DNA of 42,329 nt from Fibrobacterales bacterium (GCA_051532055.1 JAOPTX010000079.1:1-42329), one strand, 5' to 3'. Positions 18,627 through 42,329 are shown, numbered from the stretch's first letter. A program made the numbers and translations. The notes: generated by a model from the sequence alone, not told the origin.

Positions 18627-21600
18627 ATGAAGAGAGGATATCTCTATTCGTTTCTATTGGTAAGTATTTTCACTTTCATTTTAGTAGGATGTATCTCAGG
18701 TTTTGATGACTATGTTGATGTCAAAAAAGAGACCGATGCAATCGTTACTGAATTCGTGATCTTAGAAAACTCATCAGATCTCTGTAATGACAGTTTAGAT
18801 AACGACAACGATGCCCTCTTTGATTGTTATGACCCTGACTGTGGTATGATTGAGTATTGTAACCCTGAGTATAATTGTGCAGACACCCTCGATAATGACC
18901 TTGATGGATTCGTTGATTGCAGTGACCCCGACTGTATTAATACCGAAGAATGTAATAAGCCCGTAGAAAATACTTTTGAATTGTGCCATGATACCCAAGA
19001 TAATGACTCAGACCTCCTTATAGATTGTCTTGACCCTGAATGCTCTTATTTCTGTGCGGATTCATTGGAGAATACACTGGTTAAGTGTATGGATAATATT
19101 GATAACGACCAAGATAGTCTCGTAGATTGTAAGGACCCCGATTGTAGTAGCTTTCAGATGTGCCAACCTGTAGAAGAAAATACTCTTACACTCTGTAACG
19201 ATTTTATTGATAATGATGCGGATGCCCTTGTTGATTGTGACGATGACGGTTGTTCTCAAATGGCCTTTTGTCTAGAGCCTGGTGAAAATACGTATATCAC
19301 TTGTACCGATAGTGTTGATAATGATGGTGACACCTTTGTCGATTGTGATGACGATGGTTGTAAAGGTTTTGAGATATGTCTGCCTGATGGAGAAAACACC
19401 TACATAAAATGTAGTGATGGTATCGATAATGATGATGATTTACTTATTGACTGTGAAGACCCGAACTGTAGTGGGGTACCTGTTTGTATGGGGCTCGCTG
19501 AGAATACAGATGTAGAGTGTAAGGATGGTATTGATAATGATGGAGATGCTCTTATTGATTGTTCTGATGACGACTGTAGTAGTTTTGCGTGGTGTTTGCC
19601 CTCCGTAGAGAATACCGTTGATCTTTGCAAAGATACTTTTGATAATGATGGTGATGCTCATATTGATTGTGCAGATTCTGATTGTCAGCAAATGGAGCAT
19701 TGTTTACCACCGGGTGAAAATACTTATAAAACGTGTACTGATTTGATTGATAATGATAGTGACGGACTCATTGATTGTGCTGATGATGAGTGTAAATCTT
19801 TTGAAGCATGCTTGCCAGATGGAGAAAATACTTATGCTCGATGTACCGATACGATTGATAATGATGGTGACTTACTCATCGACTGTGATGACCCAAACTG
19901 TGGTGGGGTTCCTGTGTGTATGGGCCTTGTAGAGAATACAGCTGTTGAATGTAATGATAAAATAGACAATGATGGGGACAATCTCATTGATTGTTCCGAT
20001 GATGACTGTAGTAGCTTTTTATGGTGTCTACCATCTGTAGAAAATACTGTGGTTCTCTGTCAAGATGGTGTTGATAATGATGGTGACTCAAATGTTGATT
20101 GTGATGATTCAGATTGTACACAAATGAATCACTGTATTATTCCTGGTGAAAATACTTATGTAGCATGTAGTGATGGTATTGACAATGATACAGATGGACT
20201 CATTGACTGCCTAGATAATGATTGCTCAGGATTTGATAACTGTCTTCCCCCAGGTGAGAATACGTACATTCGTTGTTCTGATGGGATTGATAATGATAGT
20301 GATACTGACATTGACTGTGATGACAGTGACTGTAGTGGTGTTTCAATCTGTCTTAATGCTGCGGAAAACACTATAGCCGAATGTCAAGATGGTGTTGATA
20401 ATGATAGTGATACTTTTATTGATTGTGCTGATGATGAATGTAATCAGTTTCAATTTTGCCAGCCCGCAGTTGAAAATACTGATATACTTTGCTCTGATGG
20501 TCTCGATAATGACAATAATAATTTGACAGACTGTGATGATCCTGGCTGCAAATTTATTAGCTCTTGCTTAGTTTTCGAAAATACAAATGCTGTATGTGGA
20601 GATGGTATTGATAATGATAGTGATGGTGATATTGACTGTGCTGATAATGATTGTGATGGACAGCCTGTTTGTATGCCTGTAGGAGAGAATACCGCGACCA
20701 AATGTGTTGATGGTATAGATAATGACGGTGACTTAAAGATAGATTGTGATGATGAAGATTGTGCTGGAATACAGGCTTGTATTAAGGAAGAAAATACTAT
20801 TCCTCGATGTAGCGATGGATTAGATAATGATAATAACGGTGTGGCTGACTGTGATGATCCTAATTGCCAGAGGTTTTTTAGTATATGTCCTGCAGCTGTT
20901 GAGAATACACAATTATTGTGTCAAGATAACATTGATAATGACAGTAATGGAGACGTTGACTGTGCTGATGATGGATGTAAATTATTTGATTTTTGTCAGG
21001 AGAATACCTCAATTACTTGTGGAGATAATTTTGATAATGATTTGGATGGAGATATTGATTGTGATGACATTGAATGTGCTGCATTTTGTGAGTCGGATGA
21101 ATTAAGTTGTTTACCGCCAGGGTACCAGTTTAGAGATAGAATTGCTTTTCAGGTTAATATTTACGATTATCATGGACAAGAAAATGGAAATTGCAGTCGA
21201 GGTAACGTTCATGATAATTTTGGTTGTGAAGATAAGCCTGGAGGTGTTGTTACCGGGATGGTTCGAAATAAATTAAGCTCGAAAGGGTTGCCTCAATTAA
21301 AAGCAAATTTAGAAAATAATGCATATATTGAAGAGTGGTGGGATAGGGATGGACGTGGAACTTGGTATGCTGATAATGTCTACTTTCAACTCAACCCAAT
21401 CGATTCCAGTTATGTTTTTGAAGACAATACTTACTTTCCGTTAGATAATATAGTGGGCTATCGAAATTATGGTTTTGCAATGCACTTCCATAAACCTTTT
21501 ATGTATCTCGAAAAGGACGCAGACAAACAGACATTTACATTTCATGGTGATGATGATGTTTTTGTGTATGTTGATAATCAACTTATTCTTGATATAGGCG

Positions 21601-21773
21601 GTATACATCAAGCTGCTTCAGGTTCTTTTAACTTAAAGCATATAGCTGATAGTTTAGGTATTCAAAATGGAGAGGTTGTAAATTTTGACTTTTTTATCGC
21701 TGAGCGTCAGCCTGTTGGGTCAGAGGCTAAAATAACAATGAAGTTACCATGCTTGGTTGGTGGGCAATTTTAG
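18627..21773 (+). CDS. Lipoprotein with 22 Cys/Asp-rich repeats and C-terminal fibro-slime (PA14-like) domain
   Basis: Lipobox LVGC; repeats ENTxxxCxDxxDNDxDxxxDCxDxxC; YFPLD..NYGFAMH..FTFHGDDDVFVYVDNQLILDIGGIH..FFIAER (fibro-slime). Confidence 0.92.
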   Translation: MKRGYLYSFLLVSIFTFILVGCISGFDDYVDVKKETDAIVTEFVILENSSDLCNDSLDNDNDALFDCYDPDCGMIEYCNPEYNCADTLDNDLDGFVDCSDPDCINTEECNKPVENTFELCHDTQDNDSDLLIDCLDPECSYFCADSLENTLVKCMDNIDNDQDSLVDCKDPDCSSFQMCQPVEENTLTLCNDFIDNDADALVDCDDDGCSQMAFCLEPGENTYITCTDSVDNDGDTFVDCDDDGCKGFEICLPDGENTYIKCSDGIDNDDDLLIDCEDPNCSGVPVCMGLAENTDVECKDGIDNDGDALIDCSDDDCSSFAWCLPSVENTVDLCKDTFDNDGDAHIDCADSDCQQMEHCLPPGENTYKTCTDLIDNDSDGLIDCADDECKSFEACLPDGENTYARCTDTIDNDGDLLIDCDDPNCGGVPVCMGLVENTAVECNDKIDNDGDNLIDCSDDDCSSFLWCLPSVENTVVLCQDGVDNDGDSNVDCDDSDCTQMNHCIIPGENTYVACSDGIDNDTDGLIDCLDNDCSGFDNCLPPGENTYIRCSDGIDNDSDTDIDCDDSDCSGVSICLNAAENTIAECQDGVDNDSDTFIDCADDECNQFQFCQPAVENTDILCSDGLDNDNNNLTDCDDPGCKFISSCLVFENTNAVCGDGIDNDSDGDIDCADNDCDGQPVCMPVGENTATKCVDGIDNDGDLKIDCDDEDCAGIQACIKEENTIPRCSDGLDNDNNGVADCDDPNCQRFFSICPAAVENTQLLCQDNIDNDSNGDVDCADDGCKLFDFCQENTSITCGDNFDNDLDGDIDCDDIECAAFCESDELSCLPPGYQFRDRIAFQVNIYDYHGQENGNCSRGNVHDNFGCEDKPGGVVTGMVRNKLSSKGLPQLKANLENNAYIEEWWDRDGRGTWYADNVYFQLNPIDSSYVFEDNTYFPLDNIVGYRNYGFAMHFHKPFMYLEKDADKQTFTFHGDDDVFVYVDNQLILDIGGIHQAASGSFNLKHIADSLGIQNGEVVNFDFFIAERQPVGSEAKITMKLPCLVGGQF
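18765..21089 (+). repeat. Intragenic tandem repeat, ~108-bp unit x22, with 432-bp higher-order periodicity
   Basis: 22 C-x-D-x-x-DND units counted; DNA at 19461 and 19893 is closely similar (offset 432). Confidence 0.9.
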
Positions 21774-21801
21774 CAATTATTCAAATAATCTATTATAAAA
21801 T

Positions 21802-21832
21802 AAGCCTATCACAACCGTGGTAGGCTTTTCTT
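21802..21832 (+). terminator. Intrinsic terminator
   Basis: AAGCCTATCAC-AACC-GTGGTAGGCTT followed by TTCTT, 29 bp after the stop. Confidence 0.75.
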
Positions 21833-21941
21833 ATTCCCTATTTAGAATTTCAATAATATTTCTACCTTTTAACCTGATGAGTGCGTCTGGGTAATGTCTT
21901 TGTTTTTGTAAGCACTTACGTGGTTTTGTTTAGGGTCTAAA

Positions 21942-24900
21942 ATGAAAAAATTCATATTAATAGTTTGTCTATTGTCTCTCCTTGGGGCGTGTAATTTATT
22001 TGATAGTAGCGGTAGTAATACCAGGGACTATGTTATTTCGGTAGAGAGTAATAAAAGCCTCCCCATTGATAGTATTCAAGCGAAAGTGATTGTTGATAGT
22101 GATACGACTTATTATTCTTTTTCTAGAGAACAGCTCAATAGAACTCCGATAGACTCATTAAGTGAAAAAATATCTGCTACACTGCAGCTTACTGGCGATA
22201 AAAGTGATAGCACTGTTGTAGAATATCAGTGCTACAGTGATGGAGTTCCGATTATTGATAAGGCAACTCATTTTGAATTTGGGGGAGGGGAGCTTACCCA
22301 TAGTGGTGGACGAGACTCTTTACTTGTTGAGTATGTAACTGAGTACAATAGTAAGAAGCTCTCCTATGATATGATTCAGAATGATTCAGCTCAAATGGAA
22401 GCGGTATGGCTACAAAACAGAGAAACTTTAAAAGAGATAACTGTTCGGTACATGCTTGATAACGATTCCAGCACTCGTAATGTGTATGCTGCTTTTAAAA
22501 ATCACTCACTCCATACTTACCTTATGGATTCTACCGTTGCCGATACTCTAGGGCTATATAGTGCAGTTAGAGATTCATTAATTTCACGTGAAGTAAACGT
22601 CGATTCTGTTTTTGCACAGCTGTTGGCACCGGGTGGTGATGTTGCTCAACTATTGGCCGAAATTCCTAATCCGATAGAAAAAATATTACCTGATGAGCCC
22701 ATTGCCCGATTTCGTTTTTCTGGTACCATAACCTCACACGCAAATGAAGTAGCCTTGGTTTATCTTCATATATGGGGAGATAGTATCATTGATACAATAG
22801 TGCGACCTATGCTGTATGACGCAGCATTGGGTGAGTACAATGGGTATCTCGATCTCTTTGAGCTTGGCGAAAGATATACTGTGTCGGCTCATGTGTATGA
22901 TGCGGATAGTCTGTTGACGGGCTTTATAAGTAAAGTTTTTGATATCAGTACTTTTGATGTTACGCTGGCGGGTATTGATGGGTGGAATGCGAAGCCGTTT
23001 GTGAGTATTGATTCGTTACCCAGTTATTCTATAGGTGATGTAGTAGAGGTTAGCTTTCACGCTAAAGATACATTAGGGAGTCAATCAAATTTGAGCATAT
23101 GGGTCAGTCATGGTACATTGGATTATACGTTAGTTCAGGATTTTAAGCATATGATTTTTTTGCCTGCAATAGATACTGTTGGTTATTCTATAAAAGCAAA
23201 AGCTATCGACTCAGATGGTAACATATCTTATACAACAAGAAATATCAATATTTTAAAAGATGTACCCGTAGTTGAATTAGGTGAAAAATTTATTGTTGGT
23301 AAACTGAACATTGTTGAATATAAGGTAAGTATCGAACAACAATTTGGAGCTATTGTCAATCAATATTGGGACTTTAATGGTGATGGAGTAATTGATGATA
23401 CATTGTCAGGAAATGGTATCTCAAATTATCATTTCACTAAATCGGGACTCTATACCAGCTGGTTATTTGTAAAAGATGATGATGGGAATATTGGGAAAGA
23501 CTCAGTGACTGTTACCGTTATAAATCAGCCACCACTAATTTCCTCTATGCAAATAGATACAGTTGTATTATTAGGCTCATCAATGAGTGCGACTTGCAAT
23601 GTATCAGATGAGGATGGCGTGATTACACACTACGAGTGGGATTTTGATGGGAATGGCATATTTGAATACCAACAAGCTACTAATACTTCTATAGAATACT
23701 TGTTTAAGCACCCTGGAACTCATACAGTATTTTTGAAAATAACGGATGATGAGGGGCTTATTGCTATTGATTCAGTAGAAGTAAAAGTAAATTCTGCTCC
23801 GTATATTAATCAAGGCTTGACTGATACAGTTACTGTAATGGAAGATGAGGAGGTACAATTTGGGTTGTCAGCTTCTGACTTCAATGGTGATGTAATCAAC
23901 TGGTCAATATTGGACTCAACTGATAATGGGCTTATACTATTAAACAATATTATCCAAGATTCACTTATAATTTTATATAGGCCCAGTGAAAATTTCGAAG
24001 GATTAGACTCATTAAGTGTGATTGCTATAGATGTTTATGGGGCAACTGATACTATCAATCTATATGTTTCTGTTAAGGCTATTAATGATTTTCCAACTAT
24101 AAATGGAATCCCTGAAATATCTGGAAATGTAGAGTTTGAGCATATTTTAACTGCCATTTCAAATTGTTCTGATATAGAAGATTCAAACACACAACTTCAA
24201 TACGTTTGGTATGTTGATGATGATAAAAATAGTTTTGATGGTGACTCTATAGGTGTTGGAGCGGATATTATTCTGCCAGCTATAAGTGTAGAAAAGTACC
24301 TGTATTTTAAGGTTAGCTGTATCGATAGCGAAAATGGAATAGATTCTACTTACTCATCTTATTCCGGTGAGGTTACATCTAAAAAATTGATCATTGAAAT
24401 AGATACGGATAGTAGCGATGCTGGGCTGGACGTACGTATTCCATTAAATGGAAATGTCGATGTAGTTATTGATTGGGGTGATGGAAATAATGAGGTTGGC
24501 ATATCAGCTAGCCTTTATTCCCATACATACAGCTCTGAAGGCAAGTACATGGTTACAATTTCAGGTAATGTTGAACATTTGGGCTGTAATGAGCTCAGTG
24601 ATTATTTTAATAATTTATGTGTTTCAGATAATTTAATCAAAGTTTATAGCTTTGGTCAAATAGGCTTGAATAGCTTGGGATGGGCCTTTGTAGGATCGAA
24701 CATTACCACCGTTCCCAAAATTTTACCTGAAACAGTTACTAATTTGTCAGGTGCATTTAAGAACGCATCTAAATTCAATGAATCAATCATGTGGGATACA
24801 AAAAATGTGACTGATATTAGTTGGACTTTTAGTGGAGCGTGGATTTTTAATTCAAATATTAATCACTGGGATGTTCGTAATGTAACAAACATGAAGGGTG

Positions 24901-25469
24901 CTTTTAGTGGGGCTAGGAATTTTAATCAAGACTTAAATGATTGGGAAACATTAAAAGTAGTAAATATGGGATGGATGTTTTCTTCTGCAATTAGCTTTAA
25001 TGGAGACATTTCTAAATGGAATGTTGGTGAAGTAACTGAAATGTTATATATGTTTGAAAATGCGACATCTTTTAATAGAGATTTAAACAATTGGGATGTC
25101 CTTAATGTTCTAGATATGGCGGCTATGTTTTCATATGCGAGTTCATTTGATGGGGATTTAAGTAAATGGCAAGTTAAAAACGTTATCAATATGAATAGTA
25201 TGTTTCGGGATGCGACGTTATTTTCCGGAGATATTATTGAATGGGACGTTTCAAATATTTCTAAAAATTTAGTTTATTTTTTGTATGGAACAAGTATTTC
25301 ACTTGAAACGTACAGTGAGATTTTAATTGAATGGGCAAAGCTACCTTTACAAAGCAATATTACTTTAGACATGGGGGAGCTTAATTATCACAGCAGCGCA
25401 ATTGAGGCAAGGAAAAAAATTACCGAAGATTTTGGTTGGGATATTGACGATGGGGGGCTTGAACCTTGA
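21942..25469 (+). CDS. Large surface lipoprotein: PKD domains, Ig/cadherin-like domain, BspA/DUF285 repeats
   Basis: Lipobox LGAC; YWDFNGDG and YEWDFDGNG (PKD); EDE..YRPSENFEGLDSL..INDFP (Big_9-like); IDWGDG; ~6-7 25-aa W.V..V.NM..MF..A..FN.D repeats at ~24720-25270. Confidence 0.9.
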   Translation: MKKFILIVCLLSLLGACNLFDSSGSNTRDYVISVESNKSLPIDSIQAKVIVDSDTTYYSFSREQLNRTPIDSLSEKISATLQLTGDKSDSTVVEYQCYSDGVPIIDKATHFEFGGGELTHSGGRDSLLVEYVTEYNSKKLSYDMIQNDSAQMEAVWLQNRETLKEITVRYMLDNDSSTRNVYAAFKNHSLHTYLMDSTVADTLGLYSAVRDSLISREVNVDSVFAQLLAPGGDVAQLLAEIPNPIEKILPDEPIARFRFSGTITSHANEVALVYLHIWGDSIIDTIVRPMLYDAALGEYNGYLDLFELGERYTVSAHVYDADSLLTGFISKVFDISTFDVTLAGIDGWNAKPFVSIDSLPSYSIGDVVEVSFHAKDTLGSQSNLSIWVSHGTLDYTLVQDFKHMIFLPAIDTVGYSIKAKAIDSDGNISYTTRNINILKDVPVVELGEKFIVGKLNIVEYKVSIEQQFGAIVNQYWDFNGDGVIDDTLSGNGISNYHFTKSGLYTSWLFVKDDDGNIGKDSVTVTVINQPPLISSMQIDTVVLLGSSMSATCNVSDEDGVITHYEWDFDGNGIFEYQQATNTSIEYLFKHPGTHTVFLKITDDEGLIAIDSVEVKVNSAPYINQGLTDTVTVMEDEEVQFGLSASDFNGDVINWSILDSTDNGLILLNNIIQDSLIILYRPSENFEGLDSLSVIAIDVYGATDTINLYVSVKAINDFPTINGIPEISGNVEFEHILTAISNCSDIEDSNTQLQYVWYVDDDKNSFDGDSIGVGADIILPAISVEKYLYFKVSCIDSENGIDSTYSSYSGEVTSKKLIIEIDTDSSDAGLDVRIPLNGNVDVVIDWGDGNNEVGISASLYSHTYSSEGKYMVTISGNVEHLGCNELSDYFNNLCVSDNLIKVYSFGQIGLNSLGWAFVGSNITTVPKILPETVTNLSGAFKNASKFNESIMWDTKNVTDISWTFSGAWIFNSNINHWDVRNVTNMKGAFSGARNFNQDLNDWETLKVVNMGWMFSSAISFNGDISKWNVGEVTEMLYMFENATSFNRDLNNWDVLNVLDMAAMFSYASSFDGDLSKWQVKNVINMNSMFRDATLFSGDIIEWDVSNISKNLVYFLYGTSISLETYSEILIEWAKLPLQSNITLDMGELNYHSSAIEARKKITEDFGWDIDDGGLEP

Positions 25470-33191: not shown

Positions 33192-33926
33192 ATGCGCACT
33201 ATTGTATTAGTATCATTTCTATTCTTAATTATTGGATGTAATCAGGCTCGTATTAAACAGCCGATCTTACTTACAAATTCACATACCTTCTTGAGTGATT
33301 CTACTCAAACATCACTTGAATTTTCTTTGTCAGAATCTCCTACCTATAGTTTTACTAATGATTATTTCACTACATCTCATTCGGAATTACTCGAAGCTCC
33401 GGGAGGCAAGCTTTCAATATATCATAAGTTCTCATCGGGAATTGGTATTTTTGGGGGTTTTACTGGTGGGTTATACTGTGGTGTAAATAAAATATTTTCG
33501 TTTCCAAAAAAATCAGCAATAGTTATTGAAACAGACCTGCAATTGGAATCTCAAATTGAAAGTGGGAATGAAAATGAATATTCATTATATAGTGAAAACC
33601 GGAAGATTAGACTCGAGAGTAGTATGTTGAGCCCTGGTGTTTCTGCAGCTTTTTCAAAAGACATTGAAAGTATCAATAAATGGTGGGGACTCTCACTAAA
33701 GGTTGGAGGGCAACTTAGAATGGTTTCAATGACCCATGAAAATACTACTGATAATTTAAAAAAGAAGAGTCATTTTTTCATAGGTGGGCCATCTGCCACT
33801 GTGGCTATAAGACTATTTAAATATCTAGGTCTTCATGCGGCAACATCATTAGGGGTTGTATCTACTGATGATTTAAGTGATGCACAGGAGTTTCAGCTTG
33901 GTATCAAGGGCTATTTTGGGAGATAA
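33192..33926 (+). CDS. Hypothetical lipoprotein, beta-strand rich
   Basis: Lipobox IIGC; beta-barrel-like C-terminus. Confidence 0.7.
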   Translation: MRTIVLVSFLFLIIGCNQARIKQPILLTNSHTFLSDSTQTSLEFSLSESPTYSFTNDYFTTSHSELLEAPGGKLSIYHKFSSGIGIFGGFTGGLYCGVNKIFSFPKKSAIVIETDLQLESQIESGNENEYSLYSENRKIRLESSMLSPGVSAAFSKDIESINKWWGLSLKVGGQLRMVSMTHENTTDNLKKKSHFFIGGPSATVAIRLFKYLGLHAATSLGVVSTDDLSDAQEFQLGIKGYFGR

Positions 33927-35188: not shown

Positions 35189-36514
35189 ATGGCAACTACC
35201 CGCGCCTCAAATAAAGAAATTTTCGGTTGGTCGATGTTCGACTTCGCCAACTCTTCTTACACCACTGTAATAATAACTGTAGTGTTTAGCATTATCTTCC
35301 CCAAAATTATAGTAGGGGATGGCCCTGATTACCGAGAAGGTAATCTTCTCTGGAGTATCGCAATTGCTACAAGTTATTTAATTGTACTCCTCATGGCGCC
35401 CGTTCTCGGTGCTATTACAGACTACACTGCCACCAAAAAGAAGTTTCTCTTTGGGAGCTGCATTGTAACTGTGATCTTTACCGCCCTTTTGTACTTCATT
35501 GAACCTGGTATGATTTGGCTTTGTATGTTCTTTCTCATTATCTCCAATATTGGCTTCTCCTTTAGTGAAGCCTTTGTGTCGAGTTTTTTACCATCACTCG
35601 GCCCACCAGAGACACTCGGTAAAATATCAGGATTTGCGTGGGGACTTGGGTATATTGGTGGTCTTATCTCTACAGCAATAATCATTTTTGGCCTTGGACC
35701 AACAGAGATAGATAACTTTGCAAATCTCAAATTTGTTGGACCAATTGTAGCAGTATTCTTTCTGTTAGCAGCAATTCCAACCTTTCTTTTAGTCAAAGAA
35801 CCGAAGAGCGAATTGAAACTTAGAGAGGGTGAATCAGTTATAAAAATGGGCTTTTCTCGAATTGGCTCAACACTAAAAGAGGTTCGTGATTTTAAAGATA
35901 TGGTAATTCTACTATCATCCTTTCTCTTTTCTTATGCTGGTCTATCTATTGTCATTTCGTTTGCCTTTATATATGGCGATCAAGTGATCAAGTGGGATAG
36001 TGGAACGCAGGTTCTCATGTTCATTATTACACAATTTGCAGCCGCAGGTGGAGCGGTAGTATTTGGAATTATTCAAGATAAAATTGGGGCACGTATTTCG
36101 TATACTTTAACCCTTGTGCTCTGGGTGATAACTATTACAATGATAGCTGGCGCGGACCAGGTAACCTATTTTCTCAATGGGATTTTCTCAACAGATTGGG
36201 AAACACAAAAAGTGTTTCTGTTTATTGGCTCATTAGCAGGCCTTGGCCTTGGCGCTACTCAGTCTGCGTGTCGGGCAATGGTGGGTCTCTTTGCACCAGA
36301 ATCTAAAGCGGGTGAGTTTTATGGACTGTGGTCAATGGTGGGTAAGGCTTCTGCTATTATTGGATTGATTGCTCTTGGCTTGCTTCAGGCTGCATTCGGA
36401 CTTAAGTATGCGATTCTTATCTGTTCACTCTTTTTTGTGATTGCAATTGTGATAACATTGTTTATCAATGAGGACCGGGGGCGAGCTACTGCTCAATCTC
36501 ACAATGGTGAATAA
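35189..36514 (+). CDS. MFS transporter, UMF1/ATG22-like
   Basis: WSMFDFANSSYTTVIIT, APVLGAITD, GKISGFAWGLGYIGG, AGEFYGLW; ~12 TM helices; GGAG RBS before ATG 35189. Confidence 0.9.
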   Translation: MATTRASNKEIFGWSMFDFANSSYTTVIITVVFSIIFPKIIVGDGPDYREGNLLWSIAIATSYLIVLLMAPVLGAITDYTATKKKFLFGSCIVTVIFTALLYFIEPGMIWLCMFFLIISNIGFSFSEAFVSSFLPSLGPPETLGKISGFAWGLGYIGGLISTAIIIFGLGPTEIDNFANLKFVGPIVAVFFLLAAIPTFLLVKEPKSELKLREGESVIKMGFSRIGSTLKEVRDFKDMVILLSSFLFSYAGLSIVISFAFIYGDQVIKWDSGTQVLMFIITQFAAAGGAVVFGIIQDKIGARISYTLTLVLWVITITMIAGADQVTYFLNGIFSTDWETQKVFLFIGSLAGLGLGATQSACRAMVGLFAPESKAGEFYGLWSMVGKASAIIGLIALGLLQAAFGLKYAILICSLFFVIAIVITLFINEDRGRATAQSHNGE

Positions 36515-36593
36515 CAACCTAACTTCAACTATTACCTTAAGTTGTGCTGGTTGTATCGCCTATTTCCTAGGGTTGATTCAAAGAATTTATCGG

Positions 36594-36630
36594 TAACTCC
36601 CTTCAATTTAATTAATTATTGGGAGTTTTT
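36594..36630 (+). terminator. Probable terminator
   Basis: AACTCCC...GGGAGTT followed by TTT, with an AT-rich inner stem/loop. Confidence 0.5.
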
Positions 36631-36792
36631 CATACAGACTTATAAACTCTAACTTTTAAAATACGCACTATTTAGTTGCACCAACTCTATATATTTGGCA
36701 AAATAGAGGTGATTGTGACTTTTAAAGTAGTTGACTGCATAGCCAAACTTGAGCTTATGGAGTGCACTTTAATGAAGTAAATGGGGTAGCGC

Positions 36793-38619
36793 GTGCATAG
36801 AGCTTTTCGAAATAGAACTATACCTCTTGGTGTCGTGATTTGTTTTATTGTTCTTTTGAGCCTTTTTCAAGGATATAGTGGGCAACTCGATAGCCAAGAG
36901 AGTGAAATATCTGAACAGTATGAGCGGATTATTAAGAATGAAATGCTCAAATACTTTAAAGAAGGAACCTTTATTGTTGATGTAAAGGTGGCCTTAAAAG
37001 AACGACTCGTTCCAAAGAAGTATAAAAGGTTACGCACAGAAGATGAAATAGATAAACTTCCAGGACTTCCAGTACTTCCCGCTGAACTGAGAGCAGAGGT
37101 AAAAAGTAACAACAGTGACAGTGTTAAAGTATCGGATTATGATGCCATTTTCGAGGTTAAATATGCTGATGTAACTATCCTTGTTGATTCCTCATACACC
37201 CTAGATGAGTTTGGATTTATTGTAGACCTCGTGATGATGGTTGCAAATTTAGAAGAGATGCGTGGAGACCGAGTTAATATAAGCCAAAAGAAATTCCCTG
37301 ATGAATTATTACGTTCAGGGCATTTACAAGAAAATATCGATCAAGATGCTTTTTTACCTGCTATTGAAGAACCACTTACTGAGAGAGAACGTATTGTTAA
37401 TAGTGTGATAAAGCTACTCCCTATTATTATAGTGAGCGTCCTACTTTTTCTCTTTTTGGTTATTACACTGGGTATGTTACTTAAATATTATCGTTCTAAA
37501 AATGAATTTGAGAATACTGAAAAATTGACTCAAATGATACAACAAATTAGTGATCAATCTAAAGAGGCTATCATAGGAAATGAGGACGATACAATGGAAG
37601 GCGCAGGCTCTGAGGAACGGGTAATAGAGGATCTTGCCTATAAAACCAATCGAATCTCTATACTCAATTCATTTATTGGTAGACCAGAAAAATCCACTGA
37701 AGTACTCAAGGGTTGGATCGAGAAGAGTGCTGAAGAGGGTTTTAATAAAGCCGCTCTTTTAGTTATGATTATTGATGAGAAAGTACTGGATGTTATTAGA
37801 CCATTTATGGTTCAAGCTACTGTTGCAGGAATTGAACTTGAGCTTAAGGTACTCGAAAAGCCCGATGAAGAAAGTGCTCTTTTTGTGATGGCAGAATTTA
37901 AAGAAGATTACAATAAGCGTATTGCCGATGACCATGAAGATAAGGATAACTATGATATATTTAATTTTCTCAAACAGTTGACCAACGATCAGGTCCTTCA
38001 TGTACTAAAAGGTGAAGAGGAGGGGATTATTGGTATTGCACTTGCGCAACTTACTCCTAAGGTTGCTGGGGAGGTATTACAATCTTATGATGGAGAGAAG
38101 CGGTCTAAGTTATTGATTAGTATGGGTAATATCAGTAATATTCCTGTATCCCTGTATAAAGAAGTAGCTGAGCAGTTATCTACAAAAGCACTTGAAGTAA
38201 GTAATATGCGCTCTGTTGCGGCTGATGGTATCGAGAGTATTATTGAGGTTATAGCAAATTTAAGTGTCGATGGCCAATCACAATATATCCACTCTATCTC
38301 TGAAATGGATTTAGAGCTTGCACAGAAAATTAGACGATTCTATGTTACCTTCGAAGATCTTTCTTCGCTCCCTGATGATATTTTATCCAAGGTTCTTCAA
38401 GAGGTTGACCGTGATGCACTCAGTGTAGCGCTTTTACATACTCAAGAAGATTTTATTAATCATATTTTACAACTCTTCCCTGAAAGGATGCAGGCAATGA
38501 TTCAATCGGGAGTCGAGACAAATAGTGATGCTACCCCAGAAACTATTGATATTTCGCGAAAAGAGATATTGCAAAGAGTTCGGAAAGAACTCAAGCAGTT
38601 AGGAGGGCTTCCACAATGA
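36793..38619 (+). CDS. FliF(C-terminal ring domain)-TM-FliG fusion protein
   Basis: Signal/TM; VTILVD...DLVMMVANL..RGDRVNI (FliF RBM3); TM; RPEKSTEVLKGW (FliF C-tail); KAALLV (FliG-N); IFNFLKQL..IGIALAQL (FliG-M); LAQKIRRFYVTFEDL..ERMQAMI (FliG-C). Confidence 0.85.
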   Translation: MHRAFRNRTIPLGVVICFIVLLSLFQGYSGQLDSQESEISEQYERIIKNEMLKYFKEGTFIVDVKVALKERLVPKKYKRLRTEDEIDKLPGLPVLPAELRAEVKSNNSDSVKVSDYDAIFEVKYADVTILVDSSYTLDEFGFIVDLVMMVANLEEMRGDRVNISQKKFPDELLRSGHLQENIDQDAFLPAIEEPLTERERIVNSVIKLLPIIIVSVLLFLFLVITLGMLLKYYRSKNEFENTEKLTQMIQQISDQSKEAIIGNEDDTMEGAGSEERVIEDLAYKTNRISILNSFIGRPEKSTEVLKGWIEKSAEEGFNKAALLVMIIDEKVLDVIRPFMVQATVAGIELELKVLEKPDEESALFVMAEFKEDYNKRIADDHEDKDNYDIFNFLKQLTNDQVLHVLKGEEEGIIGIALAQLTPKVAGEVLQSYDGEKRSKLLISMGNISNIPVSLYKEVAEQLSTKALEVSNMRSVAADGIESIIEVIANLSVDGQSQYIHSISEMDLELAQKIRRFYVTFEDLSSLPDDILSKVLQEVDRDALSVALLHTQEDFINHILQLFPERMQAMIQSGVETNSDATPETIDISRKEILQRVRKELKQLGGLPQ

Positions 38620-39722
38620 AATGCCTATTGATACTTCTAATGGTTACGGTTTTGGTCAGTGCTAAAAATAAGGTTACTTACCTGAGCCAAGATACAAAAA
38701 GCGAAAAAGAGATAGATGCTGAATACGAGTCCGAGAGTAATACAGGCATGAGTCAGATCTATCATATTATTGATCAGCTAAAAACGTCAGTAGGGGATAT
38801 CCCTCCGTATATTGAACGGATTGCAATTTATCAATTAAAGGTTAAACGCGATGAATTCAACAGTGGGATGGCGCGCTTTATTCGTGGTCACATTGAAGAG
38901 GTTTTTATGCGGAGCGCACGCAAGAAAATGGTAACCGCCCCAGAGCTGAGCAGAGTCCGAATTCTATCAACTGATTCATCTTTTAATATGTCCAGTTCAC
39001 TACCGACAACTGACGAACTCTGGGATTTGGGTGAGAAGCTTAGAATAGACGGTTTCTTAGAGGGCTCTATTACTCGAACTGAAGAGGGTGATGTGATGCT
39101 GAGTCTCAAAATATTTAAACATAAAACCAATGAACAAGTATGGTCGGTTAATCTCGTGGCAGGGCCTAATAAAGTTGAAGACAACTATCTAGATTATGAA
39201 GTTAATGTGAAAGCAAGTTTCAGTTATTGGCCTATAGAAAAATTTACTCAAGACGCTCGGTCATTTACTGAGGAATTAACTCTTTACGGGTACACTTTTG
39301 ACTTTATGATCAGTGAAGCGACGACGGTTGATCGCTTTTTCTACATGGCACTGTATGCAGGGTTTGGCATGTACAACCCAATGTCGGCTAAAGAAAATGA
39401 TGAAACGTTTAATAAGTTATCAAAAAAATTCCCTATCGATCTCGGATTTGAAATGACCGGTATTATCGTTCCAAAACAAAATAAAGATGAGGGCTATTGG
39501 CTTGGTCTAACAACCGGTGTGAAAACTCTCATTTTTGATAATCTATGGTCGGTTAATGCTGGCTTTAAAAGTCGGCTTACTCCTCACTTTGGAATTGGTG
39601 CTGGCGCAAATATCTGGCCGATTAACACTACCTTTGAGCCAAGTTTACTCGACGGTACAAGTAACTATGAACTTAAAATGGAGATGGTGTCGTATGAAGG
39701 TTATTTACACTACTATTTTTAA
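38616..39722 (+). CDS. Secreted protein: CsgG/FlgO/TolB-N-like domain + probable C-terminal OM beta-barrel
   Basis: Signal peptide; RIAIYQL..LGEKLRIDGFLEGSI..LSLKIF..TNEQVWS; amphipathic strands ending YLHYYF; ATGA overlap with the upstream gene. Confidence 0.7.
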   Translation: MKCLLILLMVTVLVSAKNKVTYLSQDTKSEKEIDAEYESESNTGMSQIYHIIDQLKTSVGDIPPYIERIAIYQLKVKRDEFNSGMARFIRGHIEEVFMRSARKKMVTAPELSRVRILSTDSSFNMSSSLPTTDELWDLGEKLRIDGFLEGSITRTEEGDVMLSLKIFKHKTNEQVWSVNLVAGPNKVEDNYLDYEVNVKASFSYWPIEKFTQDARSFTEELTLYGYTFDFMISEATTVDRFFYMALYAGFGMYNPMSAKENDETFNKLSKKFPIDLGFEMTGIIVPKQNKDEGYWLGLTTGVKTLIFDNLWSVNAGFKSRLTPHFGIGAGANIWPINTTFEPSLLDGTSNYELKMEMVSYEGYLHYYF

Positions 39723-40347
39723 CGGGTTCATAGTGGGCTCACTCGTATGCCTTTCGGCATGCTCATCATCATCAAAGGGCACTTCGGGGCGTGGTCAGCC
39801 ACAGCCCAGTGAAGAAAAAGAAAAGAGTGAACAACTTACTATCCGCTATTCGAATCAGTCTACCTCTATCAAAATGCAAGTAGACCCATTTGATGAAGAC
39901 CTCTATATCGATATGAGAGGTGGGTTGCATTCAACACAATCTATATCGGCAAATACCAATAGTATTGATACGGTGTATCAGATATCAAAACAACCCGAGC
40001 AGTCTCAGGGTCAACCTCAAGGAGGGCAGAGACCCATACCAAATTCAGAAGTTCAGAAAAATATGCAAAATATGCAGCCACAGAAAATGAATAACAGTGT
40101 GTTGGCCCATATCCGACGAGCACAAGATTATTTTTATAAAAAGCAGTATGAAGACGCTGTTGAGGCAGTGAATCAATCTTTGCAAATTCAAAAAACTGCT
40201 GAAGGCTATGCACTTATAGGGAGTATATATTACATGATGGATGAAATTCCATGGGCCATAACGCAATGGAGAAATGCCTTGGAGCTTAACCCGGATATGA
40301 TTGAGATTCAAAAAATGCTTGAAAAAATTAAGAGGGACCAAGAATGA
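39694..40347 (+). CDS. TPR-containing lipoprotein
   Basis: Start MKVIYTT at 39694; lipobox LSAC; Q/P-rich linker; AQDYFYKKQYEDA..GSIYYMM..WRNALELNP TPRs. Confidence 0.85.
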   Translation: MKVIYTTIFNGFIVGSLVCLSACSSSSKGTSGRGQPQPSEEKEKSEQLTIRYSNQSTSIKMQVDPFDEDLYIDMRGGLHSTQSISANTNSIDTVYQISKQPEQSQGQPQGGQRPIPNSEVQKNMQNMQPQKMNNSVLAHIRRAQDYFYKKQYEDAVEAVNQSLQIQKTAEGYALIGSIYYMMDEIPWAITQWRNALELNPDMIEIQKMLEKIKRDQE

Positions 40348-41132
40348 AATTATCACTTGATACCTTTGTAGGCTCAATTTTTGGTGTTTCACTTCTCGCT
40401 TGGGGGGTATTGAGTGCAACTAAAGATTGGGAGATGTTTTTGAGTCAACCGAGTGCACTCATTGTTTTTGGAGGTTCAGTTACCGCTGCGTTTATTGGAT
40501 TTAGATGGCGATATCTTAAAGCGGCACTTTTTGATATTCTAACAATTTATGCTCAACAAACAATCAACCCAAAAACTCTGTCTCAAGATGTCAAAATGCT
40601 TATAGAGTGGTCTAAGAAAATAAAAGTAGATGGGAAAAAAGGACTTAAAGAGATCATAGATGGGAGTAACGACAACTTTGTTCAGTACACCCTCTCCCTT
40701 GTGAGCACCGGTTACAAACCAGAAGAGGTTCAAGATATGGCGTCGACCAGTATCGAGGAGCACTACTATAGACGCTTGACTGAAACGAATATTCTTAATA
40801 CCATGGCGTCATCAGCTCCAGCCTTCGGAATGGTTGGTACACTCATCGGACTTATTGTAATGCTCGGTCAGATGGAAGATCCTTCAAAAATGGGTCCAGG
40901 TTTATCAATGGCATTACTTACCACGCTTTACGGAGTACTCGTGGCGCGATTTATATTCCAGCCAACCTCGACAAAAGTAAAACAAAAATTAGGAATAAAT
41001 AGATTTCGAGAGTTTCTTATATTAAATGGAATTCTACTGATTATGGAGAAAAAATCACCATTTTACATTCAAGACAAACTCAATTCATATCTTGATCGCA
41101 AATTTCACGAAGATCACGTAGTCGGTGAATAG
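40344..41132 (+). CDS. motA: MotA/PomA family stator subunit
   Basis: PSALIVFGGS, APAFGMVGTLIGLIVML, GPGLSMALLTTLYGV; 4-TM MotA architecture. Confidence 0.92.
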   Translation: MKLSLDTFVGSIFGVSLLAWGVLSATKDWEMFLSQPSALIVFGGSVTAAFIGFRWRYLKAALFDILTIYAQQTINPKTLSQDVKMLIEWSKKIKVDGKKGLKEIIDGSNDNFVQYTLSLVSTGYKPEEVQDMASTSIEEHYYRRLTETNILNTMASSAPAFGMVGTLIGLIVMLGQMEDPSKMGPGLSMALLTTLYGVLVARFIFQPTSTKVKQKLGINRFREFLILNGILLIMEKKSPFYIQDKLNSYLDRKFHEDHVVGE

Positions 41133-41134
41133 AG

Positions 41135-41806
41135 ATGTCCCTTCAAAAGCATTCAGGTAATAGGCCTCCCGATATTGATGAACCCGATGAAGGGTGGTTG
41201 AGTACCTATGCTGACATGATAACATTGCTCATGGCATTCTTCTTGGTATTGATTTCAATATCAAAAGTAGACGTTGCTCTTTTTGAACAACTCAAACAGG
41301 GGCTGCAAAAAGAAATCGCAAAAAAAGAGAAGGTCGAAACTCCTCTTGCAAAAATAAAACGGGATCTCGACTCCTTATTAATACAGGAACGTTCTCAAAA
41401 AAAGGTTTCTATCGATCTTGGTCGAAAAGGAATTACCATGCAATTTGCAAGTTCAGCTTTTTATGGACCAGGACGTGCGGATATTGGGCGAGAAGCAAAG
41501 CGTATTATTGATAAAGTTGTAGGGGCGATCAACAACATCACTTACTACCCTTTTCAGATAGATATTGAAGGACATACTGATAATGTTCCGATCAATACGT
41601 TACGATTCCCCTCAAACTGGGAGCTTTCAGTAGCACGAGCAACCACTATTGTCAAATACTGCCTCTCTAAAGGTGTGCCCTCTGATAGGCTCAAGGCTGC
41701 AGGATATGCTGATACTAAACCAATTGTACCTAACCAAACAACAACGGGAAAGAATATTGGTAAAAATCAGGCTATGAATCGGCGTATCGTGATTCGGATT
41801 CATTAG
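41135..41806 (+). CDS. motB: MotB/PomB family stator subunit with OmpA-like peptidoglycan-binding domain
   Basis: WLSTYADMITLLMAFF (ion-binding Asp); IEGHTDNVPI..FPSNWELSVARA..GYADTKP..NRRIVI. Confidence 0.93.
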   Translation: MSLQKHSGNRPPDIDEPDEGWLSTYADMITLLMAFFLVLISISKVDVALFEQLKQGLQKEIAKKEKVETPLAKIKRDLDSLLIQERSQKKVSIDLGRKGITMQFASSAFYGPGRADIGREAKRIIDKVVGAINNITYYPFQIDIEGHTDNVPINTLRFPSNWELSVARATTIVKYCLSKGVPSDRLKAAGYADTKPIVPNQTTTGKNIGKNQAMNRRIVIRIH

Positions 41807-41812
41807 ATTTTG

Positions 41813-42329
41813 TTAAGAATTTAAACAAGCCTCGGCAGCTTCTTTCAATGTTTCAGAAAATGTAGGATGTGCATGTACCGTATGAGCAATATCTGAAATC
41901 GTCATTCCTGCTTTCATGATTATACCCGCTTCTGCGATGAGCTCTGATGCAACAGCACCTACAATATGAATTCCGGCAACACTACCATCTTCATGGGCGA
42001 GGATTTTGACAAACCCTTCAATCTCATTTACGGCTCGTGCTCTACCATTTGCACGAAATTGAGCGACTCCTTTTTTGTAAAGTGAGCTTGATTTTTTAAG
42101 AGATTGTTCAGTAAGACCAATGGAGGCAGCTTCAGGGTGAGTATATATCACCCCAGGGATCTCAGGTATCCTAGTGTCGATAGTTTTGCCAGCTATATGC
42201 TGAGCAACAAGTATTCCTTCGTATTCGGCCTTATGAGCGAGCATCATACCAGGGGCAACATCACCAATTGCATATATATGTTTTTGAGATGTCTCAAAAT
42301 GAGGAGAGACAGTAATTTGACCGCGATCA
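41813..42329 (-). CDS. lpdA: Dihydrolipoyl dehydrogenase (3' part; start outside the window)
   Basis: IYAIGDVAPGMMLAHKAEYEG, IPGVIYTHPE, HAHPTFSE; the frame stays open to the window end. Confidence 0.93.
   Translation of the reverse strand, partial: DRGQITVSPHFETSQKHIYAIGDVAPGMMLAHKAEYEGILVAQHIAGKTIDTRIPEIPGVIYTHPEAASIGLTEQSLKKSSSLYKKGVAQFRANGRARAVNEIEGFVKILAHEDGSVAGIHIVGAVASELIAEAGIIMKAGMTISDIAHTVHAHPTFSETLKEAAEACLNS

Follow-up and report, generated by a model that had tools for sequence, protein, structure and literature searches.

FliG together with the stator proteins MotA and MotB is usually treated as the mark of the flagellum. The type III injectisome, itself derived from the flagellum, retains part of the basal body, with export and no stator, and none of the other 5:2 inner-membrane ion motors that work on outer-membrane or periplasmic partners (GldLM-GldKN of gliding and the type IX secretion system (T9SS), Agl-Glt, Ton, Tol-Pal and ZorAB) uses, to our knowledge, a FliF/FliG rotor. 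A natural FliF-FliG fusion in Chlorobium tepidum is said to be mentioned in passing in papers on FliF-FliG structure. Engineered or mutant fusions in Salmonella and Vibrio likewise combine the S ring and FliG in one chain (PMC11481574, PMC10941966), and stator phylogeny links flagellar-type stators to flagellar motility (PMC12505986). Here we describe, in 42,329 nucleotides of a Fibrobacterales bacterium (GCA_051532055.1 JAOPTX010000079.1:1-42329; this whole stretch is called the window), a five-gene operon at positions 36793-41806 that joins a FliF-FliG fusion (A) to two outer-membrane partners (B and C) and to its own MotA (D) and MotB (E). It is an additional module beside the ordinary flagellar motor of its genome, and appears to be a rotary machine that has not been described before and that many bacteria, some of them non-flagellated, have retained. 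No description of the operon was found in the literature searched; the gene-neighbourhood tables of PMC12505986 or PMC13277936 could contain members.

Comparison with described systems

With the flagellar motor core the operon shares the RBM3/beta-collar fold, a FliF tail followed by the N, M and C domains of FliG, MotA, and a MotB with plug, OmpA domain and Asp. In contrast to that core, it has a natural fusion that lacks TM1, RBM1, RBM2 and the EHPQ motif, and two non-flagellar outer-membrane partners; the export gate, rod, hook, filament and FliM/FliN of the flagellum are missing both from the operon and from many carrier genomes. The engineered fusions place a whole FliF inside a flagellum, whereas A belongs to a natural family that is truncated and has a stator of its own. 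Compared with the injectisome the operon is the opposite half, with rotor and stator kept and export lost, and the profiles of the export gate (FHIPEP for SctV/FlhA, and FliP for SctR/FliP) found nothing in 30 carriers. The stator is of the MotAB type, unlike GldLM or ExbBD/TolQR, and D scores 143 bits against MotP and 135 against PomA in NCBIfam compared with 23 for ExbB and 19 for TolQ, all under cut-off. None of the five proteins has a Pfam or NCBIfam match to a Gld/Por motor beyond a generic OmpA-domain match of E to PorE, at 32 bits against a cut-off of 600. The operon would work like the flagellar motor core, yet on the features tested it belongs to none of the flagellum, the injectisome, Ton/Tol and T9SS.

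The operon parts are not products of chance, because their domains reach Pfam E-values of 3.4e-19 (FliG_C), 2.2e-11 (FliG_M), 3.6e-23 (MotA_ExbB), 1.8e-16 (MotB_plug), 9.7e-16 (OmpA) and 7.9e-11 (TPR_1).

The rotor protein

The original prediction described A as a FliF-FliG fusion and named absent homology to FliF and FliG as grounds for abandoning it. Profile and fold matches support both homologies, and the FliG part is complete. The prediction is refined in one respect, in that FliF is not present as a whole: A retains its RBM3/beta-collar, second membrane helix and C-terminal tail and nothing else of it. When profiles were compared with the aligned family, YscJ_FliF_C matched 14 of 25 A relatives at E<=0.05 and YscJ_FliF (PF01514, covering RBM1/2) matched none of the 25. 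The AlphaFold model of A has a mean pLDDT of 78.9 and a pTM of 0.30, values at which the domain folds are usable and the placement of the domains relative to each other is not. Residues 29-169 align with the MS ring 8z5v (VIA Z 15.0, rmsd 5.9, 129 residues aligned) and with 6scn (VIA Z 14.3), and Foldseek matches of the RBM3/collar to MS-ring structures range from E 4e-5 to 5e-4, including the RBM3/collar of 6sd1 at 1.2e-4. SpoIIIAG, which forms an RBM3-like ring, like A lacks RBM1/2 and is not joined to FliG or MotAB, gives only VIA Z 8.1. Residues 311-606 match FliG by fold.

Hydropathy peaks at 3.1 at residue 208 and reaches no more than 1.7 in the N-terminal stretch, which across the aligned family is weakly hydrophobic and often ends in A-x-A-Q, so that the N-terminus reads as a putative cleaved signal peptide. 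All 78 full-length locus proteins carry the collar motif [LMIV]PG[LIVMF], as do 130 of 136 cluster representatives, and the LPGLP loop is a candidate docking site for an output partner. In the flagellum the RBM3/collar forms the S ring, with top loops that contact the rod, while RBM2 holds the export gate (PMC11481574); A therefore retains the ring and the torque end and loses the seat for export. The EHPQ motif with which FliG binds FliM (PMC7355467) is present in none of 80 A homologues, compared with EHP in 28 of 28 canonical FliGs.

Conservation of the operon

Strong matches to A (E<=6e-42) occur in 32 of 296 genomes of the phylum, the other matches being mostly canonical FliG. Among 22 fusion loci cut with long flanks, 20 carry the five genes in the window order and two stop at a contig edge; one further candidate, L070 (51 bits, masked, partner genes absent), was dropped from this count. 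A profile search of 1.84 billion representatives returned 228 clusters at E<=1e-30, with lengths of at least 550 aa in 136 of the 150 proteins examined, and look-alike clusters in the ESM Atlas belong to Balneolota, Bdellovibrionota, Bacteroidota, Pseudomonadota and Elusimicrobiota. A degenerate DNA motif derived from the A family and scanned over named genomes gave at least 120 matches, of which 80 loci in 76 genomes were examined. All 80 code for the long fusion, and they come from Balneolaceae, Bermanella, Oleispira, Vibrio penaeicida, Chitinophagaceae, Flavobacteriales, Cytophagia, Ignavibacteriae, Elusimicrobiota, Sericytochromatia and Fibrobacteria, a list that is a biased sample (a stricter form of the motif matches 73 of 136 representatives).

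The five-gene set is complete in 56 of the 80 loci, in orders that include A-B-C-D-E, B-C-A-D-E, B-C-D-E-A and D-E-B-C-A; the remainder comprise 13 usher-linked loci, nine cut by contig ends and two with A, C and B and no adjacent MotA/MotB. Conserved synteny, on which the original prediction had also staked itself, thus extends to a gene set retained across phyla. Flanking genes (25 proteins tested) are housekeeping genes that differ by lineage. In one Sericytochromatia locus (L160:1-6708), A-C-B precedes a MotA gene, a pair of MotB genes and the beginning of another MotA, an arrangement in which one rotor may be served by two stator types.

Measured against a congener (G001), dN/dS is 0.023-0.079 for the five genes and 0.017-0.036 for housekeeping neighbours, with dS near saturation; FliG parts give 0.011-0.047. 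A quick IQ-TREE phylogeny compared the FliG parts of 41 fusions, thinned from a set of 78, with 28 canonical FliGs that come largely from these same genomes. A single branch of length 1.96 with SH-aLRT 100 splits the two groups; the tree is unrooted and does not give the order of origin. The closest relatives of the window protein in this tree carry Fibrobacteria titles.

Independence from the flagellum

The source genome, which is 94% complete, has canonical FliG and FliF on one contig (C7) and FlhA with a second MotA/MotB on another (C23), together with 12 flagellin-domain matches, eight rod/hook matches and a sole PF01514 match, on C7. Because it has its own fliF, fliG, motA and motB elsewhere, the operon is not the ordinary motor of this genome; had it been, the original prediction would have counted itself refuted. 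Its statement that the window is free of flagellar genes held for FlhA, flagellin, rod/hook and YscJ_FliF, all of which match only other contigs, FliM/FliN and che having been outside the searches of window and genome; its label of non-flagellar fits the module and not the cell, which is flagellated. Eight flagellin-domain genes stand in a row on a further contig (C36, L004-L006) of the genome.

FlhA and flagellin are both missing from 29 of the 50 carrier genomes searched for both. These 29, which were selected for that absence and most of which are drafts of unstated completeness, together with G241 gave no match for FliM/N (FliMN_C), rod or FliP (0/30). G241 (L064:7491-12577), a single contig of 1.6 Mb from the same class and 98% complete, carries the full operon and no flagellar gene that we found; that a genome this small keeps the operon hints at an important function. 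Three single-contig Balneolaceae chromosomes (G298, G311 and G326) and the isolate Balneola sp. EhC07 (G304) each carry two long fusions. In these four and G241, every FliG_C match falls in a long frame (609-649 aa), and none of the five has a match to CheW. Three loci (L098, L137 and L155) sit in genomes titled Chitinophagaceae (G301, G327 and G337) that have FlhA, flagellin and canonical FliG, which is unusual for the family; the titles may be wrong.

Stator and torque residues

All 70 MotB homologues keep Asp27, and the two MotA prolines (P159 and P207 in the window D) are present in 70 and 69 of 71. The three threonines that mark Na+-driven stators (PMC10374538) are present in the window D and in 55 of 70 homologues, and the middle one is lost in 14 of 70 (e.g. 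L101, L121, L130, L132, L150, L151, L157, L158, L102, L143 and L168), which suggests repeated change of the coupling ion within the family. The flagellar MotA of the source genome also carries the triad. Elsewhere in that genome (G000:C31:54287-55877, L009) a 624-aa frame with a weak match to MotA_ExbB adjoins a weak match to MotB_plug, a pair that by its size we presume could be ZorA/ZorB-like.

On the rotor side, the torque-helix position equivalent to FliG R281 (R565 in the window A) is Arg or Lys in 78 of 80 fusions. Across 68 loci the tree distances of A correlate with those of MotA (rho 0.80), but kinship confounds this correlation, which was not accepted as co-evolution.

Outer-membrane partners

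B has no Pfam or NCBIfam match, and its sequence gave only spurious matches in the PDB. Its AlphaFold model (pLDDT 80.2) aligns in the periplasmic domain with LpoB 4q6l (VIA Z 12.3, rmsd 3.0, 123 residues aligned) and in the barrel with that of OprF, 4rlc (VIA Z 14.7, rmsd 2.1, 118 aligned). The protein ends in Phe, as do 42 of 57 homologues. Two other systems share this architecture in part, and neither is joined to FliG/MotAB: PelBC combines an LpoB-like ring domain with a barrel and TPRs, as B and C do (Z 7.9-8.3), and the Vibrio H/T (LPHT) ring shares the fold of B at a middling Z of 7.9.

C matches Pfam TPR_1/TPR_2, and its lipoprotein Cys23 is invariant in 14 aligned sequences. Its three-strand beta motif is found in 54 of 57 C proteins from loci with B and in none of 11 from usher-type loci without B, a contrast that amounts to a single event and carries no statistic, the profile having been built from C proteins of B-type loci and the usher-type loci forming one clade. 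Because the motif occurs in loci with B and is absent from those without it, this distribution suggests that it binds B. An apparent B-C fusion (L156) was rejected, its frame crossing unknown bases.

The usher-type loci (13 of the 80; L086:578-11910 and 12 more, e.g. L097, L164 and L127) form a subtype in Balneolaceae in which a second copy of the motor lacks B. DUF4402 pilin-like genes are followed by a gene for a 277-aa chaperone-like protein, one for a 1000-aa usher-like protein and then the motor copy; DUF4402 itself was found in two small upstream genes of the locus. No usher or chaperone match was obtained in Pfam, NCBIfam or PDB sequences, and those two labels rest on size, order and appearance. 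The tail of the usher-like protein is homologous to the TPRs of C, and the MotB of this subtype is extended by SPOR domains. Judged from these sequences, the arrangement points to a TPR module as the link by which the motor joins different platforms in the outer membrane.

Proposed machine and alternatives

The operon very probably encodes a separate machine, and the best explanation, which we regard as probable, is a stand-alone rotary machine of the envelope derived from the flagellar motor. A would assemble through RBM3 into an inner-membrane ring with FliG below, a cleaved signal peptide standing in for TM1, and without RBM1 and RBM2 this ring would offer no seat for an export gate. Peptidoglycan-anchored MotA5B2 units from the operon would conduct ions, with Na+ made probable here by the Thr triad, and would drive the FliG ring round, presumably one way only because the FliM/FliN switch and CheY input are lacking. 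Through the LPGLP collar loop the movement would reach a complex that B and C form at the outer membrane, in which the beta motif of C would bind B and its flexible linker and TPRs would reach the ring. The least certain step is the last, in which the movement may perform mechanical work on outer-membrane or surface parts, with a fibre, adhesin or polymer being moved or assembled, rather than swimming. The output through B and C that the original prediction proposed, and its three candidate roles (surface motility, secretion and energising of outer-membrane transport), stand likewise as conjecture. That the ring truly rotates with its output at the outer membrane seems to us reasonably likely; that the job is movement or assembly of surface structures is a tentative proposal, favoured over sensing mainly because of the swap of B for an usher-like protein in Balneolaceae.

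Several observations weigh against a rotary machine of this kind. FlhA is above cut-off in 43 of 76 carrier genomes. Positions of the torque charges were mapped via the canonical proteins of the source genome, and we take them to correspond to the E. coli numbering. On this mapping the FliG D289 equivalent is acidic (Asp or Glu) in 52 of 80 fusions and the D288 equivalent in 25 of 80, compared with 28 of 28 canonical FliGs for both; the MotA R90 equivalent is Lys or Arg in 51 of 71 and the E98 equivalent Asp or Glu in 33 of 71. The window A lacks both FliG acids (S572 and G573), and the E98 equivalent of its D is Lys; E575 of A and E103 of D might be substitute acids nearby, which is a guess. 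Engineered FliF-FliG fusions make rings whose FliG tier is flexible without FliM/FliN (PMC10941966). From the model, the eight-stranded barrel of B appears too small for a conduit, the operon has neither a shaft nor a peptidoglycan hydrolase, and in the flanks examined no cargo gene is conserved next to B-type operons. In two loci, L119 (3217-8125) and L152, the order is A-C-B, C is long and rich in proline, and the flank examined contains no MotA/MotB gene.

A machine that energises outer-membrane transport or assembly, as Ton/Tol or the T9SS motor does, overlaps with this explanation and differs in the output: MotAB would ratchet or strain the ring so as to open, pull or recycle outer-membrane proteins. 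The resemblance of the periplasmic domain of B to TolB-N, LpoB and PelC, the correspondence of B and C to the part kinds of PelBC (barrel, LpoB-like domain and TPR) and the coupling of the motor to a putative outer-membrane assembly protein with a C-like tail in the usher-linked subtype all point this way. The stator, however, is flagellar-type by the criteria of PMC12505986, with plug and OmpA domain, and not of the ExbB/TolQ type, the operon has no TonB- or TolA-like gene, and the PelC and FlgT fold matches are middling. We consider an energiser somewhat unlikely.

In a non-rotating sensor or ion channel, the ring of A would serve as a scaffold that recruits and unplugs MotAB, and the ion flow would report envelope load or damage (surface contact, stress or phage, cf. 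Zorya). The drift of the torque charges, greatest in this lineage, the absence of FliM/N to stiffen the FliG ring and the absence of a shaft are what such a device would lead one to expect. Against it, the N, M and C domains of FliG are retained under strong purifying selection, the torque-helix Arg/Lys is almost always kept, and the flanks examined share no conserved gene for an effector or for signalling (PADLOC was not searched). We regard it as improbable.

An accessory or second motor of the ordinary flagellum, to which the presence of FlhA in the source genome and in the 43 other carriers and the occurrence of the periplasmic fold of B in the Vibrio LPHT ring (8z5n) might point, is very improbable and largely refuted by the non-flagellated carriers: the operon is intact in 30 genomes without detected flagellar export, rod, switch or filament genes (four of them single-contig), A lacks the RBM1/RBM2 and EHPQ elements, and the operon is absent from most flagellated genomes of the phylum. 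That it is a decaying remnant of a lost flagellar cluster, as the long branches relative to canonical FliG and the patchy distribution in the phylum could suggest, has next to no probability, because purifying selection and cross-phylum conservation refute it: the frames are open, dN/dS stays below 0.08, the ion-path residues are invariant, and the gene set, which includes two non-flagellar partners, is fixed across phyla.

For the favoured rotary envelope machine, whether it represents a second, widespread class of FliF/FliG machine, with a one-protein rotor, its own MotAB and interchangeable outer-membrane outputs (barrel plus TPR lipoprotein, or pilus usher), seems to us evenly poised. If so, no simpler natural rotary motor with gearing would be known; the machine could power a form of surface motility, or of handling surface fibres, that has gone unrecognised in at least six phyla, and it might be a sister of the flagellar motor, revealing what role rotor and stator had in the absence of type III export. 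A machine with rotor and stator and no export, switch or filament bears on the origin or reuse of the flagellar motor, and a three-protein rotor-stator could be rebuilt in vitro. Swimming cannot be read from annotations of 'fliG, motA, motB' in Balneolota, Bacteroidota, Elusimicrobiota and others. Harmless carriers are in culture, both without a flagellum (Balneola sp. EhC07) and with one (Bermanella sp. R86531, which has a single copy of the operon), and make the proposal testable now.

Operon layout and genomic setting

The five open reading frames (ORFs) lie on one strand (Table 1) and are as tightly coupled as the original prediction stated, with ATGA overlaps at 38616 and 40344, a 29-bp overlap of B and C and a 2-bp gap between D and E. 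The gene upstream of A encodes a major facilitator superfamily (MFS) transporter (Pfam ATG22/MFS_1), as had also been predicted, and the adjoining convergent ORF (41813-42328) is presumably the end of a dihydrolipoamide dehydrogenase gene (lpdA). The G+C content of the operon is 39.0%, compared with 39.6% for the genome, and no sigma-70-like promoter or terminator was seen in 36450-36850. In one marine metatranscriptome, 13 short contigs at a depth of 2-15 cover the region, of which some match A without a difference and one bridges C and D; coverage extends to neighbouring genes and may reflect DNA carry-over, and it is not counted as evidence.

Table 1 Genes and features of the operon, with positions counted from the first nucleotide of the window.
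Feature	Positions	Strand	Description	Basis
Gene A	36793..38619	+	608 aa, GTG start; signal-peptide-like N-terminus, FliF RBM3/beta-collar, membrane helix, FliF C-tail, FliG N+M+C	Pfam FliG_C, FliG_M, weak FliG_N; YscJ_FliF_C profile; AlphaFold model; fold matches
A, RBM3 and short beta-collar (S-ring module)	36877..37299	+	Residues 29-169	Fold matches
A, LPGLP motif	37057..37071	+	Residues 89-93, collar loop	Conserved [LMIV]PG[LIVMF]
A, single strong membrane helix (FliF TM2 equivalent)	37414..37470	+	Residues about 208-226	Hydropathy
A, FliG part	37726..38616	+	Residues 312-608; EEEG in place of EHPQ; R565 kept, acidic positions are S572 and G573	
Gene B	38616..39722	+	368 aa; signal peptide, LpoB/TolB-N/PelC-like periplasmic domain 46-184, eight-stranded OmpA-type barrel 190-368	
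Gene C	39694..40347	+	217 aa from ATG at 39694; lipoprotein Cys23, three-strand beta motif 47-82, low-complexity linker, two TPRs	
Gene D	40344..41132	+	262 aa; flagellar (PomA/MotP-like) MotA; P159, P207 and T166/T193/T194 present	
Gene E	41135..41806	+	223 aa; MotB with Asp27, plug and OmpA-type peptidoglycan-binding domain	

Elsewhere in the window, two adjacent large lipoprotein-like ORFs of 1048 and 1175 aa (18627-25469) are of a kind that we did not recognise. A lipoprotein-like ORF of 244 aa with no Pfam match (33192-33926) lies between dapB and trpS and is missing from that position in the congener G001.

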